Shown here piece by piece: positions 1 to 4,561 of a DNA stretch of 52,238 nt (position 1 is its first letter; every line of letters begins with the position of its first letter). The translations under genes and the position numbers were made by a program. The notes below the pieces were generated by a model. That model made no database searches. It had not been told where the DNA came from and worked only from the letters and a program-made list of their open reading frames with translations. The stretch comes from a virus (lineage: Duplodnaviria; Caudoviricetes): IMG/VR virus record IMGVR_UViG_3300048554_000415, positions 1 to 52,238 of that record; one strand, written 5' to 3'.

Positions 1-108
1 GTTACAATGGCACAGTAGAGCCCACTCTTTTGGTTCGTTTCCCTCAGGCAAGTTCCGACGGCCCGTATTGCTACGAACAATCTCAATGCTTTTAACAAAG
101 AGGGTATG
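1..108 (-). ncRNA. Candidate structured non-coding RNA directly downstream of the GIY-YIG ORF (truncated by the window edge)
   Basis: No ORF. About 47% GC over 1-100, above the surrounding coding DNA. Minus-strand hairpin GUUCGUA-GCAA-UACGGGC (61-78) has a GNRA tetraloop and two G-U pairs that form only on the minus strand. CUCUUU (97-102) can pair with AAAGAG (25-30) to close a larger domain. Confidence 0.4.
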
Positions 109-537
109 TTACGACTGTTGTCTGTTTAGTGATTCTATAAGTGCCTTGGAACTGCCAACTCTTACGTTTATAATGCCGTTATAGTATTCATCAGTTTTAA
201 GAACTTCACGGTCAAACTGTTCTTTAGCTTCTAAGTAACTTAGTTCGCCTCTGCTGGTGCAGTAGTACAGTATTTCTCTTGTGAAGTTTTCTGGGCCTAA
301 ATGTTCAACATCTGCATTCAAGTGATCACTGCTTCCCCAATAGGTTCTCCAGTCACTTTCTTTAGTTGAACGTCTTTTGTTTTTCTTGCCTTTGAGTGGT
401 TTTTTGGTTACTTTAAACTTTGCTAGTTTTTTGCCAATGTATTTTTTGCCGTTTGTGAGGTTGGTAATAAGATATACAAATCCTATGTATTCCTCACTAA
501 TTTCTTCTACTATTTTGCCTTGATAAGTCCATTGCAT
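109..537 (-). CDS. Small GIY-YIG family endonuclease (Seg-like, catalytic domain only)
   Basis: Motif GFVYLITNLTNGKKYIGKK, then YWGSS, conserved Glu (YLEAKEQ) and YYN. 142 aa with no C-terminal DNA-binding repeats. Confidence 0.85.
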   Translation of the reverse strand: MQWTYQGKIVEEISEEYIGFVYLITNLTNGKKYIGKKLAKFKVTKKPLKGKKNKRRSTKESDWRTYWGSSDHLNADVEHLGPENFTREILYYCTSRGELSYLEAKEQFDREVLKTDEYYNGIINVRVGSSKALIESLNRQQS

Positions 538-554
538 ATTTGTTTATAGCAACA

Positions 555-584
555 ATTATATATATCTTCTAAGACATTTGTCAA
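555..584 (-). promoter_or_regulatory. sigma70-type promoter for the GIY-YIG gene
   Basis: Minus strand TTGACA (579-584), 18 bp, TATAAT (555-560). A late-like TATAAACA (541-548) lies 3 nt before the ATG. Confidence 0.75.
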
Positions 585-589
585 CCGGT

Positions 590-1279
590 TTAGTACATCT
601 TTTTTAAGATTTTCCAAGTTTGATTGTAGCCTTCGTCAATCTGATGAAAATGTGTACTTGCCTCTGCGGCTGTAAAATCATTACCATCAGGGTAACAGTT
701 GTCTCCGAAAAAAATTGTTGTGCCTTCTTGTTCTAATACAGCTTGACTCTTGTCACAGCCTTTTTTGTAAATGTCTATACTGGTTTCTCCTGCTACTGTA
801 GCAACACTATCTGAGAATTTATTGTTATATGCTTCTGCGATAAATTCTCTACCTTTGTTTTTACAATCCCATTCTGCATAACGGGAGCGTTGATCCCAAT
901 TGGCATTTCTGCCCACGATACTTATATTAGCAGTACCGGTTCTTTGTTCAATATGATTGCCAGTTTTTTCGTTGTAGCTAATACTGTCTAGCAAATTTTC
1001 TAAAAAATTATACTGTTCTGTGTTTAACATCCAATCATTTTTTGATACTTCTTTTGCACCAACGTACACATGATTGCCGCTACAATGATATACCCTGTGG
1101 AATGTGTTTGTTAGCTCTAAACCGATCTGTTCTATAGTTTTTGGTCTATCACTACCTGTTACAATCATACATTTATGTTTGTCAATAAACTCTAACATAA
1201 ACTTACGAAATTCTGGATCGATAGGTTTACGAGCATCAGTGAGTGTACCATCAACATCAAACATAAAAGTATTAGTCAT
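590..1279 (-). CDS. HAD-IIB phosphomannomutase, eukaryotic PMM-like
   Basis: FDVDGTLTDAR (HAD motif I), VTGSD, IEQR, GETSIDI, K, FFGDNCYPDGND. These match the PMM1/PMM2/Sec53 pattern (FDVDGTLT..R, GGSD, GQISFD, FFGD...GGND). Confidence 0.8.
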   Translation of the reverse strand: MTNTFMFDVDGTLTDARKPIDPEFRKFMLEFIDKHKCMIVTGSDRPKTIEQIGLELTNTFHRVYHCSGNHVYVGAKEVSKNDWMLNTEQYNFLENLLDSISYNEKTGNHIEQRTGTANISIVGRNANWDQRSRYAEWDCKNKGREFIAEAYNNKFSDSVATVAGETSIDIYKKGCDKSQAVLEQEGTTIFFGDNCYPDGNDFTAAEASTHFHQIDEGYNQTWKILKKMY

Positions 1280-1592
1280 CGCTTCGTTCTTTCATTTCCT
1301 TAGGGTACCATTTGTATAGTATATCAAGTGGCAATTTCTTTTGTTTACTAGGTGCATGATGTCCTAGTCCTGTTAAAGTTACAGTTCCAACATTCGATGA
1401 TATCATTGTACTTGTACAGTTGGTTGCACATGTGTTGTACATAGAAGCATTATCCACAATAGATAATGTTGTATCTCCTAATAGAGGAGCTTCTGTTTCT
1501 AACCAAGTTTCAAAATCATCGTCACCTTTTTGACCTTTGTTATTAAAGCTATCAATGTGTATTGTGTATTGGTCTTCGTTGTGATCTCTCAT
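1272..1592 (-). CDS. Hypothetical protein
   Basis: 106-aa ORF overlapping both neighbours in the operon. C-terminal KKLPLDILYK motif is shared with the adjacent ORF. Confidence 0.6.
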   Translation of the reverse strand: MRDHNEDQYTIHIDSFNNKGQKGDDDFETWLETEAPLLGDTTLSIVDNASMYNTCATNCTSTMISSNVGTVTLTGLGHHAPSKQKKLPLDILYKWYPKEMKERSDD

Positions 1593-1789
1593 AGTTTTTT
1601 TCCAAAAAGTTTATAAAATATGTCTATAGGTAGTATCTTCTTTGTTAATAATTCTTGTGGATGATAACCATACAGTTGTTCACCTGTGGTTTTTATAATT
1701 TTACGACTAGAGTGCGGAGAATTAAATTCTCTTTCATATACAGTTTTGCCACCGTCTGGGCTTTCATATATCTTAGGCTTATTTGGCAT
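1589..1789 (-). CDS. Small hypothetical protein (IYESPDGGKTVY motif)
   Basis: Likely ATG at 1789 (MPNKPK...), overlapping the gp46 stop. The longer start at 1828 lies deeper inside gp46. Confidence 0.7.
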   Translation of the reverse strand: MPNKPKIYESPDGGKTVYEREFNSPHSSRKIIKTTGEQLYGYHPQELLTKKILPIDIFYKLFGKKL

Positions 1790-3548
1790 CAACAAACTCT
1801 GTATCAGTACTGAATGTAGTAAACCCACCTTCTTTAATAACTTGTAGTATTGTGTTTACACGACCTACTAGTTCATCTCTGTGTGAGATTAAGAAGATGT
1901 TTTTATTACGTTCACGCTCTATCTTTTTAAGTACACCCAATGCACCATCAACACCATTAGTGTCCATGCCACTATCAATAAGTTCATCAATAGCCAAAAA
2001 GTTTATTGGTGTGTTCATACTTTCAAAAACATCTCTAAAACTCCAACTAAGTCCTAGTATCAATCTGTTGCGTTCGCCTCTGCTAAGATTATCAAAGTCT
2101 AAATCTCTGCCTAGTTCTGTAATCTCTACAGTTAAGTCTGGTTGAAATGCAACTTCATGTGGTAATCCTAATTTGGTCAAGTAATAAGCTAGTCTACTGT
2201 TTAGGTATTGCAAGTTCTGTTCAATGATACGTTTTCTAATAAAGCTGTCTTTGTTTGTTAACAGTTTGTATAGGAAGTCCTGATGATCTTTTACTGTGTT
2301 CAGTTGATTCATAGTATCCCAAGTTATTTCTTGTACACCTGTTTCACGCAGACTTTCTATCTGTTCTTGATATGTATCGCTTTCATTTTGCTTGTTTGTA
2401 ACTTGACTACGCAAGTTTTCCAATTCCATATTGTGTTTGTGTGCTTCAGTTTCAGTATTGTAGTGTGTTACTGGCATTTGACCTAGTTCGCCTAAAGAAG
2501 TCAAAGCGTCTGACCATTCTTGTTCTTCTAAAGCGTTTACTGCTATTTGCTCACTAGCTTCTTTCCGTAAACCTTGTTTACTAGAGAGGATCTCCTCTTG
2601 TTTAGCATCGTGTATTTCTTGTCCACATGCATGACACTTGTGATCTTCTAATAGTGCAAGCTCTTTATCTAACTTATCAATAAGTCTTTGTTGTTTTGTA
2701 TTGTCAGTTTGTATATTAGATAACCAACGTTCTGCTTCGTCTTTCAGTTTTTTCTTTTCTAGGTAATCACTCAACAATTTATGATTGCTAAGTTCTGTTT
2801 GGATATCTATTTTCTCTAATGTGTTTATTTGCTGTTGGATACTTTCGACAGTAATTTTTTGTTGATCCCGCCAAATTTTCTGCCTGCGTTCCAGATCACC
2901 GATACTTTTCTCAATTCTGGAATTTGCTTCTTCAACTGCATTAATTCGATACTCTTCTTCTTTGATTGCATCTCTTGTTAGCCTTTGTTGTTCTTTAAGA
3001 ACCTCTGCTTTTTCACTAAGCATTGTTATGCCTAGTAACTGCTCAATAATTGCTCGCTGATCGTTTGCCCGCATACTGAGAAAAGGTTCTGTATATGTGT
3101 TAAGTGCAACAATGTGTTTAAACATATCATGACTCATGCTAAACAGTTTTTCTATTTGTGCTTGAGTTTGACGATTTTCACCTTGTGCTTCGTCTTCGTC
3201 AACATTCTCTTCATTGACATAGTATTTAAGCACATTAGGCTTTCTACCCCGTTCAATACGGTAACTTGTACCATCTTTAACAAAATCCAGTGTAACCATC
3301 ATGCTTTTGCCGTTGGTTTTGTTTACTAGATTGTCTTTGCGTATGTTTGTTAATGCGTTTCCGTAGATAGCATAACTGAGTGCATTAATGATAGTGGTCT
3401 TACCAGTACCATTTCTACTACCATCTCCGCCCAAGTCTACATTATTTCCTAGTACAAGTGTTAATCCGTCATTAGTAAAACGTACAGCCTGTGTAACGTT
3501 GCCAACACTCATAAAGTTTTTTACGGTTAAGTCTTTAATTACTATCAT
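1779..3548 (-). CDS. gp46: Recombination endonuclease ATPase subunit (T4 gp46/Rad50/SbcC-like)
   Basis: KNFMSVGN, Walker A NGTGKTT, coiled coil with CHAC zinc hook, signature LSRGE, Walker B LAIDE, ISH H-loop. Confidence 0.95.
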   Translation of the reverse strand: MIVIKDLTVKNFMSVGNVTQAVRFTNDGLTLVLGNNVDLGGDGSRNGTGKTTIINALSYAIYGNALTNIRKDNLVNKTNGKSMMVTLDFVKDGTSYRIERGRKPNVLKYYVNEENVDEDEAQGENRQTQAQIEKLFSMSHDMFKHIVALNTYTEPFLSMRANDQRAIIEQLLGITMLSEKAEVLKEQQRLTRDAIKEEEYRINAVEEANSRIEKSIGDLERRQKIWRDQQKITVESIQQQINTLEKIDIQTELSNHKLLSDYLEKKKLKDEAERWLSNIQTDNTKQQRLIDKLDKELALLEDHKCHACGQEIHDAKQEEILSSKQGLRKEASEQIAVNALEEQEWSDALTSLGELGQMPVTHYNTETEAHKHNMELENLRSQVTNKQNESDTYQEQIESLRETGVQEITWDTMNQLNTVKDHQDFLYKLLTNKDSFIRKRIIEQNLQYLNSRLAYYLTKLGLPHEVAFQPDLTVEITELGRDLDFDNLSRGERNRLILGLSWSFRDVFESMNTPINFLAIDELIDSGMDTNGVDGALGVLKKIERERNKNIFLISHRDELVGRVNTILQVIKEGGFTTFSTDTEFVDAK

Positions 3549-4561
3549 AGGTTATTATATATGTCCACTAGAAGTTTCTTGTCTATCATATCGCTGTCTA
3601 CAGCATTCAAACTATTATACACTATTTGGTCTACATTTTCAACCTCAATGTCATCGACTACACGCCAGTCCTGTGCATGTTCTTCTTTCTTAGTTGGCAT
3701 AAGTGTTATTTCTCTTACACCATACTGTTGGCTAAATGTTTCCTTAATAAAGCTAGCTTCTTCATAACTGATTGCAATGTCTAGTGTAGCTCTACAATAC
3801 GTTTTACTATTGAGTATTGTATCTGGTTCATCTATTAGCCTACTTAAACTTACAGTTCTATAACGTGGACCATCGAAGTTTATATACTCTGGTTCGCCGC
3901 CCCACTCTAACACCATCATACCACGATCATCATCCCATGCATCAGCATAGTTGTGTGGGAAAGGTGAACCTAAGTAGTGTACGTTGCCTTTGTTTTGTCT
4001 TTTGTGAAAGTGACCAGTAAACACATACTCTGGACCTTGCAAGTGTTCTGCATTTAATTGTCCGTGATCTGGCATTTCTACCATAGCATTCATTTTAAAG
4101 TAAGGAAGTTCAAAATGACCAAACATGTATCTACATTTGGTCTTGCTTACTTGTGTCCACTCATCTCCAACTAACCAAGGCACAAGTGCTACTTCATCTT
4201 GTACCAGTGTTTTTTCATTTATCAAGTGTACATTCTCAAACAGTTCTGCATAAGGTAAACTGTTATAGTCACGCTTCTCTCTATAATACAAGTCATGATT
4301 ACCAGTAATCATGTATACTTGCTTGAATGCACGACTGAGCTTTGCTACGTTTTCCACACTATAGTTGAGTGTACTCACATTTACACTGGCACGATGATGG
4401 TGCCAATCTCCTAAGAATATGCAAGTTTCACAGTTTTTCTCTTTGGCTTGTTCAACAAACCAATCAACAAAGTCTACACAGTCACGATTGTGTTGTTTGC
4501 TATTATTCTTGTTTCCGAAATGTATATCCGTAAAACAAGCCGCACGATTAAAAAATGTCAT
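3545..4561 (-). CDS. gp47: Recombination endonuclease nuclease subunit (T4 gp47/Mre11/SbcD-like)
   Basis: Metallophosphoesterase motifs DIHFG, LGD, GNHD, GHFE, GHFH. Adjacent to gp46. Confidence 0.95.
   Translation of the reverse strand: MTFFNRAACFTDIHFGNKNNSKQHNRDCVDFVDWFVEQAKEKNCETCIFLGDWHHHRASVNVSTLNYSVENVAKLSRAFKQVYMITGNHDLYYREKRDYNSLPYAELFENVHLINEKTLVQDEVALVPWLVGDEWTQVSKTKCRYMFGHFELPYFKMNAMVEMPDHGQLNAEHLQGPEYVFTGHFHKRQNKGNVHYLGSPFPHNYADAWDDDRGMMVLEWGGEPEYINFDGPRYRTVSLSRLIDEPDTILNSKTYCRATLDIAISYEEASFIKETFSQQYGVREITLMPTKKEEHAQDWRVVDDIEVENVDQIVYNSLNAVDSDMIDKKLLVDIYNNL

Follow-up and report, generated by a model that had tools for sequence, protein, structure and literature searches.

A small gene for a GIY-YIG nuclease lies at one end of the viral contig studied here, and non-coding DNA with signs of secondary structure follows immediately after its stop codon. 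The question raised by this locus is whether the protein and the adjoining RNA act together, as an earlier note on this DNA had proposed in suggesting a ribonucleoprotein system, or whether they are separate entities that share a genomic position. The DNA analysed (the window) comprises 52,238 nt and is the complete IMG/VR record IMGVR_UViG_3300048554_000415; end repeats were absent and a completeness of 12% was estimated by CheckV. Because the window is the whole record, there is no DNA to the left of position 1, and the element is cut by the contig end.

Searches and alignments

Relatives of the nuclease were collected (586 confirmed, 80 loci kept) and their downstream DNA was compared. An exact pattern made from the element retrieved 90 stretches in viral contigs, and 51 distinct full-length copies were aligned (alignment A1). 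With a looser pattern at least 120 stretches were obtained, which brought in the divergent classes B and C; 45 diverse cores of type 1 form alignment A2. Homology was based on nhmmer profiles and on exact patterns, with no covariance model, the patterns reaching close relatives only. All homologues come from fragmentary metagenomic contigs, and the MAFFT alignments misplace some pairs.

Genomic context and the nuclease gene

The features at the left end of the window are listed in Table 1. The best named matches of the gp46-like protein were found in Phosso (469 kb) and in the PA5oct group (about 287 kb), with ~48% identity. Other contigs of the same clade measure 124-198 kb at estimated completeness of 34-55%, and these completeness estimates suggest genomes of several hundred kilobases. 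The carriers are uncultured T4-like phages of aquatic origin that form a broad clade, with genomes that are, on these estimates, probably large.

Table 1. Features at the left end of the window, from the upstream genes to the contig end.
Feature	Position	Strand	Evidence or remark
SbcD/gp47-like gene	4561..3545	minus	ORF and domain match
SbcC/gp46-like gene	3548..1779	minus	ORF and domain match
Two small ORFs	between the gp46-like and the HAD/phosphomannomutase-like genes	minus	
HAD/phosphomannomutase (PMM)-like gene	1279..590	minus	ORF and domain match
Sigma-70-type promoter	584..555	minus	-35 TTGACA 584..579, 18-nt spacer, -10 TATAAT 560..555
GIY-YIG nuclease gene, SegE type, 142 aa	537..109	minus	ORF, PF19835, phrog_447
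Start of structured non-coding RNA, type 1 class A, ~108 of ~310 nt	1..108	minus	profile and DNA identity
Helix H1, 5' strand, CCCTC	104..100	minus	pairs with 45..41
Helix H1, 3' strand, GAGGG	45..41	minus	pairs with 104..100
Helix H2, GCA with TGC	89..87 with 50..48	minus	100% paired
Variable hairpin, 7-bp stem, GCAA loop	78..61	minus	covariation
Conserved A-rich single-stranded linker	40..26	minus	start of the core common to all classes
Helix H4, 5' strand	25..21	minus	contig ends inside the 3' strand of H4 (first base only)
Hairpin H5 nested in H4, 9-nt loop	17..15 with 5..3	minus	

The stop codon of the HAD/PMM-like gene sits 50 nt ahead of the nuclease ORF. The promoter that the earlier note had assigned to the nuclease gene is present between that stop and the nuclease start codon, with 12/12 consensus positions, and the same layout, ~47 nt ahead of the ATG of the nuclease gene, is seen in L286, L307, L309 and L333, the closest class A loci.

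The nuclease is a SegE-type GIY-YIG protein and, as had been described, a minimal one devoid of C-terminal modules. The Pfam family SegE_GIY-YIG (PF19835) covers residues 3-123 with its profile positions 1-123/123 (E 6e-36; 123.8 bits, cut-off 25), which leaves only 19 residues outside the match, and no further domain was found in the 142-aa protein. The best PHROG profile (phrog_447, E 1.1e-38) is itself 148 positions long, so the domain-only form is the norm for the family of this nuclease. An alignment of 11 homologues (74-97% identity) contained 67 invariant columns, including FVY (20-22), YIG (33-35), R55/R56, E88/E103/E106 and N120/N124; the putative catalytic residues among them are those expected by analogy with I-TevI. 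The stretch formerly regarded as a very basic insert is nearly invariant in these homologues and lies within the domain match; hence it is not an insert. A phmmer search against solved structures gave no relative at E up to 1.

Structure of the non-coding RNA

The G+C content of positions 1-108 was 47.2%, compared with 28.7-41.7% in the following 19 bins of 108 nt, in agreement with the earlier observation that GC-richer non-coding DNA begins right after the nuclease stop. The reverse complement of window positions 1-140 matched at full length 3' of the nuclease gene in 10 loci (78-91% DNA identity) and partially in 4 more, and nhmmer aligned profile positions 1-109 with window positions 109..1 (E 3.7e-28). 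In the alignment, about 310 conserved non-coding bases come first; an AT-rich spacer, two conserved hairpins and a convergent gene lie beyond them.

Several helices could be evaluated within the 108 nt of the window. H1 (alignment columns 6-10 with 71-75) was 93.3% paired, with changes on both sides in 3/5 pairs, and H2 showed a both-side change in one sequence (L105, GC to UA). The GNRA hairpin noted previously at 61-78 is real and variable: six of its seven pairs change on both sides among 51 homologues, and 68% of the cells pair in a position that is poorly aligned by MAFFT. H4 and H5 were 100% paired in 45 sequences, with both-side changes in 6/8 pairs. On the other hand, the possible long-range helix 97-102/25-30 was not sustained, as both-side changes occurred in 0/6 pairs and pairing reached 77.1% against 75.9% in shuffles; the long-range helix of the window that does covary is 100-104/41-45 instead.

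For the full type 1 RNA (alignment A2, n=45), 10 helices with 54 pairs were obtained, 91.6% paired against 78.4% in shuffles, a value reached by 0/500 of them. Both-side changes were found in 28 of the 54 pairs, and the covariation score was 0.427, in comparison with 0.04-0.13 when partners were slid by 1-3 columns. The topology is a string of hairpins plus one loop-to-strand pseudoknot, in which the H6 loop pairs with the strand after H9; 5/6 of its pairs change on both sides, with class C and L337 counted as broken because their pseudoknot register is shifted by one column. Cells with G-U amounted to 248 and those with A-C to 26, an excess that assigns the RNA to the strand of the nuclease gene. 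In type 2, RNAalifold gave 54 pairs, 97.6% paired and 16 of them with both-side changes, with 125 G-U and 1 A-C cells. The covarying, strand-specific structure that the earlier note had expected downstream of homologous GIY-YIG genes is therefore present.

Other readings of the same DNA were considered. The earlier note had named a simple terminator, or the end of a protein gene, as what would speak against it, and neither was found: the element is a multi-helix RNA, and 0 intrinsic terminator sites (GC-rich hairpin plus T run) were detected in window positions 1-1400. A protein-coding reading of positions 1-108 was rejected, since 3/6 frames are open but the homologues show compensating helix changes and indels of 1-2 nt. 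ARAGORN found 0 tRNA or tmRNA genes in the window. Within the limits of comparative evidence, it can be regarded as certain that this is a genuine RNA, strand-specific and pseudoknotted, from an uncatalogued superfamily, and that the window contains its first third.

Twin motif of the 3' module

The 3' module of the RNA contains the same short motif twice. In type 1, the 6-mer in the H10 loop is identical to a 6-mer in the 3' tail in 39/45 sequences; the two flank a 12-14-bp hairpin (H11), and the family has thirteen different 6-mers in all. In type 2 the design recurs, with 7-mers identical in 18/18 sequences and four variants, and in type 3 it was recognized by eye in 4 loci. In all types a conserved GACUGAAAC-like stretch comes after the twin-motif hairpin. 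No consistent complementary site for the motif was found within the RNA in 45 sequences, and in the 52-kb window its inverted-repeat sites were 0 (0.10 expected by chance) and the motif was not enriched (6 found, 4.6 expected). Two sites that stay alike and yet are free to vary suggest that both meet the same partner, and the module points to a mechanism of recognition.

Types, classes and distribution

The superfamily comprises three sequence types with RNAs of 300-430 nt (~310 nt in the clade of the window). Within type 1, classes B and C share with class A the core from the A-rich linker on, and have other 5' domains. Type 2 RNA was located 3' of the nuclease gene in 37 of the 80 kept loci and type 3 RNA in 5 further loci. 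A profile seeded on L037 reached type 3 (E 1e-40 to 1e-104), type 2 (E down to 1e-61), class C and L337 (E 1e-39 to 1e-61), class B (E 1e-11 to 1e-18) and class A (E 1e-5 to 1e-10); since it reaches all three types, they were taken as homologous.

The RNA occupies a slot with the gp47-gp46 recombination genes upstream and a convergent T4_baseplate gene downstream, and its content is exchanged. At locus L008 the nuclease is 94% identical to that of the window and the locus is the same, with type 1 replaced by type 2. Its homology to L003 is lost near codon 133 of the nuclease gene and picks up again at the hairpins further downstream; an 86-aa ORF and a non-coding element of about 370 nt (type 2) lie in between. 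Loci of the L287 kind are mosaics with the first 145 positions of type 2 and a type 1 core.

Well over 150 viral contigs of aquatic origin carry a member of the superfamily, within the replication/recombination module. No family of Rfam 15 (4227 models) fell on the element at E up to 10, and the only Rfam matches were weak, terminator-like, on the other strand and downstream of it. In a DNA search of named phages, both near and distant, the nuclease ORF of phage Melnitz alone was matched and the RNA was not; the syntenic region of PA5oct has long unannotated gaps with no match to the RNA profile. Cellular genomes (185,579 species) gave 4 pattern matches, none supported by the profile beyond the pattern stretch. 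Two of them were read and proved to be GC-rich sequence unlike the RNA, and in L384 the pattern stretch alone scored (E 2e-4), with no nuclease or gp46 gene nearby. Full-text literature searches returned no description of this RNA, and a recent preprint examined by term search yielded none either. A catalogue of over ten thousand viral RNA candidates has no relevant passage in its main text; its searchable table gives just the genes downstream of each motif, and the element may stand unnamed elsewhere in the catalogue (PMC10690425).

Linkage and separability of the nuclease gene and the RNA

The nuclease gene was found upstream of the RNA in 151/153 evaluable RNA loci. For type 1, 78 of the 80 looser-pattern loci had sufficient upstream DNA to be evaluable and the gene was upstream on the same strand in 76 of them; for type 2, where 80 loci came from a pattern of the RNA only, it was upstream in all 75 evaluable loci, at -32 to +332 nt. 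The pair persists as gp46 identity to the window drops from 94% to about 50%, and the genes on both sides of it vary. In classes A and C no more than a few bases separate the nuclease stop codon from the start of the RNA.

Separation was observed in both directions. In three contigs (L305, L337 and L366) a PDDEXK_15 gene (PF24608, E 1.6e-26; PHROG annotation "RusA-like resolvase") lies directly ahead of the RNA in place of the GIY-YIG gene, so that the replacing gene likewise encodes a nuclease-fold protein; the 168-kb contig G001, which holds L337, contains no close GIY-YIG homologue. Conversely, among the 72 of the 80 kept loci with at least 150 nt downstream of the nuclease gene, 56 had the RNA and 16 had none. 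In 5 of these 16 the nuclease gene is inverted between the baseplate gene and gp46, and in the other 11 neither gene was found within 3 kb. Phage Melnitz (Kyanoviridae) carries an 80%-identical nuclease gene after nrdB, followed by unrelated DNA and no RNA. Moreover, ORFs separate the gene from the RNA in L008 and L287, and class B has a TTGACA-N17-TAnnnT promoter at the nuclease stop in 22/29 loci, 265-310 nt before the RNA core.

Nuclease identity was 74-97% whether type 1, type 2, type 3 or no RNA comes after the gene. It tracks gp46 identity across loci, and the nuclease thus behaves as a stable resident and not as a sporadic selfish gene.

The interpretation of the earlier note is partly supported, in that a conserved structured RNA does adjoin the nuclease gene. 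Gene and RNA are separable both ways, however, and a joint action of the two in a ribonucleoprotein found no support.

Expression

In the clade of the window, the sole strong promoter is the one ahead of the nuclease gene. Four marine RNA libraries, each from a different study, yielded assembled contigs that cover the nuclease ORF, and in three of these libraries the RNA was covered too. The data consist of contigs instead of reads, at low depth, and give neither strand, ends nor expression level; uncovered stretches carry no meaning, and carry-over of DNA is possible. Runs X10 and X3, the latter an oligo-dT library, gave contigs that extend 31 bases or more to either side of the gene/RNA junction; in the X1 records crossing it, one side is shorter than 31 bases. 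Taken together, the promoter position and the contigs bridging the junction in three studies lend some weak support to the co-transcription that had been suggested for the gene and the RNA. This applies to the clade of the window; in class B a promoter lies between the two.

Comparison with other structured RNAs

It is rare for a large RNA to have a pseudoknot together with ten or more covarying helices, and the majority of those discovered to date turned out to be ribozymes, riboswitches or ribonucleoprotein components. GOLLD, ROOL and OLE (10.1101/2024.12.08.627333) resemble the present RNA in size, many covarying helices, phage association and the lack of a known function. They differ in that Rfam 15 includes them and none was matched, and in that the RNA studied here has a fixed neighbour gene and a twin-motif module. 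A group I intron with a homing endonuclease would also place a GIY-YIG gene beside a structured RNA in a T4-like phage. This candidate was discarded because flanking exons are missing, an AT-rich spacer follows the RNA and no Rfam group I model matched at E up to 10; the hairpin string with one loop-to-strand pseudoknot is a different topology.

Interpretation

The reading that we prefer, in which we place about even confidence, is that the RNA is autonomous and that the nuclease gene beside it is a conserved neighbour, functioning independently of the RNA and marking a cassette-exchange boundary. It builds on the observed structure, strand, family, synteny and separability of the two. Positions 108..1 are the cut-off 5' part of a large self-folding RNA with about eleven helices, a pseudoknot and the twin-motif 3' module, lodged in a fixed slot between the early recombination genes gp47-gp46 and the convergent baseplate genes. 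In the clade of the window the RNA would be made by read-through from the sigma-70-type promoter ahead of the nuclease gene, and elsewhere (class B) from a promoter of its own. It would act in trans, and the identical motifs would be paired recognition sites for a fast-evolving partner. The 142-aa protein, a domain-only nuclease of the SegE family, would act without this RNA, since near-identical relatives at RNA-free loci must do so, and would cut DNA near its own gene. This gene would be a long-standing neighbour at the boundary where RNA cassettes are exchanged. T4 endonuclease II (DenA), a GIY-YIG enzyme of about 140 aa, functions with no additional DNA-binding domain, and by analogy such a protein may need no RNA partner. 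Even on this ordinary reading, the locus provides a new, well-supported class of RNA and a nuclease gene marking a cassette-exchange boundary.

A rather unlikely alternative is that the nuclease is a free-standing homing endonuclease, for which the RNA gene would be the cleavage target in rival phages or the cargo of gene conversion. The break of homology between L008 and L003 at the 3' end of the nuclease gene, with another RNA type beyond, would fit such an activity, and so would the mosaic loci of the L287 kind, the second nuclease family (PDDEXK_15) at the same site and the related protein of Melnitz, which belongs to an unrelated phage family and sits at another locus. The T4 Seg proteins, free-standing GIY-YIG nucleases of ~200-220 aa, are the closest comparison. 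The nuclease shares with them the full-length SegE domain, a position between conserved phage genes and the existence of near-identical copies, at further loci as well as in a second phage family; it differs in its 142 aa, with no C-terminal DNA-binding region. SegB lies within the T4 tRNA cluster, that is, also among genes for stable RNAs (PMC2330249), and nuclease genes at boundaries of genetic exchange are described in PMC10448857. Against homing, the nuclease is near-universal at its slot instead of sporadic, and it co-diverges with gp46; no empty site retaining an intact target was recognized among the loci compared.

We also consider unlikely that gene and RNA form a functional module in which the RNA serves the domain-only GIY-YIG protein as scaffold or guide and the two motifs act as twin guides, for example by pairing with both strands of a symmetric DNA site, so that a nuclease devoid of a DNA-binding domain would obtain its choice of target. 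The near-constant position of the gene ahead of the RNA over the whole range of gp46 identities favours such a module, as do the start of the RNA at the nuclease stop in classes A and C, the plausible co-transcription in the clade of the window and a protein reduced to the catalytic domain. The twin motifs, which vary between lineages and match within each RNA, behave as expected of a specificity element. The separability in both directions, however, argues against the module, and the same applies to a protein equally conserved with any RNA type or none, to the promoter or ORFs that intervene in some clades and to the counts of motif and inverted-repeat sites in the window, which stay at chance expectation. 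Literature searches yielded no report of an RNA-guided GIY-YIG enzyme.

The closest precedents for such a module are the OMEGA systems (IscB or TnpB with omega RNA, and HEARO), in which the gene of a compact nuclease adjoins a structured, pseudoknotted RNA several hundred nucleotides long; in TnpB this RNA starts where the nuclease ORF ends. Here too a compact nuclease adjoins a pseudoknotted RNA that starts at the ORF end. The fold is GIY-YIG here and RuvC/HNH there; transposon ends are absent, no long guide at the RNA end matching the flanking DNA was found, and Rfam gave no match to HEARO. In an OMEGA-type system nuclease and RNA would be expected always to occur together, which is not the case at these loci. 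As for a variable guide, the twin motif varies, and no match to it was found as a complement in the RNA or as an inverted repeat in the window. The specific form of the proposal, a ribonucleoprotein nuclease with the RNA as its DNA-recognition part and the twin motifs as guides, appears distinctly unlikely. If it is true, the GIY-YIG superfamily would gain its first RNA-directed member, in abundant aquatic phages, and the near-constant nuclease neighbour makes it a concrete hypothesis open to test.

Very unlikely, in our view, is a cis-acting 3' untranslated element that stabilizes, processes or terminates the gp47-gp46-nuclease transcript or controls the nuclease, with no function as a free RNA. 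The RNA does stand at the 3' end of the operon, directly after the last stop in classes A and C, with conserved hairpins beyond it before the convergent genes, and contigs from RNA libraries run from the ORF into it. But with 10 helices, a pseudoknot and 300-430 nt it is far larger than known 3' stabilizers, class B has its own promoter, the RNA is kept when the upstream gene is replaced, and terminator-like sites are lacking in window positions 1-1400.

A template for a reverse transcriptase, with the identical motifs as jump sites of a rolling template as in the defence RTs that make tandem repeats, is extremely improbable: direct repeats that are identical yet free in sequence are a requirement of template jumping, and tandem-repeat synthesis by an RT with a non-coding RNA is described in 10.64898/2026.06.29.735271, but RVT_1 matched in 0/5 RNA-bearing contigs (52-198 kb, 12-55% complete by CheckV), the repeats are only 6-9 nt long and the stretch between them is mostly a stable hairpin.

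Some features of these loci run counter to autonomy of the RNA, namely the near-constant adjacency (151/153), the start at the stop codon in classes A and C, the replacement of one nuclease fold by another, the missing DNA-binding domain and the co-divergence with gp46.

Exchange of RNA types and contig ends at the nuclease locus

The superfamily of structured RNAs encoded 3' of the GIY-YIG nuclease gene comprises three sequence types, the second of which, type 2, is 380-430 nt in length. In a close relative of the phage studied here (L008), type 2 is present in place of type 1, and homology breaks where the nuclease gene reaches its 3' end. Three further viral loci (L287, L269 and L355) carried a mosaic RNA, composed of the 5' part of type 2 and the core of type 1. 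Many viral contigs, the window included, end within or shortly past the RNA or the nuclease gene, which suggests that assemblies break at this locus, as is expected where close variants differ in the cassette carried. The coordinates of the features are detailed in the table.

Location of features associated with the RNA in the window and in related viral loci
Feature	Location	Position or context
Type 2 RNA	L008:3675-4045; likewise L022, L040, L051 and others
Contigs ending at RNA or nuclease gene	Window position 1; L006, L007, L009, L010, L015, L083 and others
Twin-motif module of RNA	L104:338-649 and homologues	Past left end of window
PDDEXK_15 gene (PF24608)	L305:2346-2858; also L337, L366	Directly upstream of RNA
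Two small conserved hairpins	L003:3740-3806 and homologues	Between RNA and convergent gene
Sigma-70-type promoter, class B	L080:3411-3445 and most class B loci	Overlaps nuclease stop codon

Twin motifs of the 3' hairpin

In L104 and its homologues, the RNA has a long 3' hairpin that is bordered by two short motifs, one on each side. The members of the pair were mutually identical in 39 of the 45 type 1 sequences, with 13 variants across lineages, and, as 7-mers, in all type 2 sequences (18/18; four variants). The motifs are direct repeats that change together, and not complementary strands. No partner for them was found, either as a consistent complement inside the RNA (45 sequences) or among inverted repeats in the 52-kb window.

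Neighbouring genes and regulatory signals

The GIY-YIG gene was absent from three RNA loci, L305, L337 and L366, and the adjoining upstream gene encoded a PDDEXK_15 protein, annotated in PHROG as RusA-like resolvase; neither the window nor the loci with a GIY-YIG gene yielded a copy of this gene. The stems of both small hairpins showed compensating changes from locus to locus, and the pair was followed by T-rich sequence when read on the opposite strand; the hairpins probably terminate transcription, either of the convergent late genes or in both directions. The class B promoter consisted of TTGACA, 17 nt and TATTAT or TATAAT, and was followed by a leader of approximately 270 nt before the RNA core.

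ARAGORN predicted no tRNA or tmRNA genes in the window (1-52238). In phage PA5oct, the syntenic region, from the SbcC-like gene to the baseplate hub gene, contained unannotated gaps of up to approximately 660 nt (L382:8868-9530), and profile search detected no similarity to the RNA in this region. Phage Melnitz carried, at a different locus and directly 3' of its copy of the nuclease gene, a 9-base string (L002:5445-5455) that exactly matches the conserved bases with which the class C RNA begins and which could be a remnant that travelled with the nuclease gene, or a chance match.
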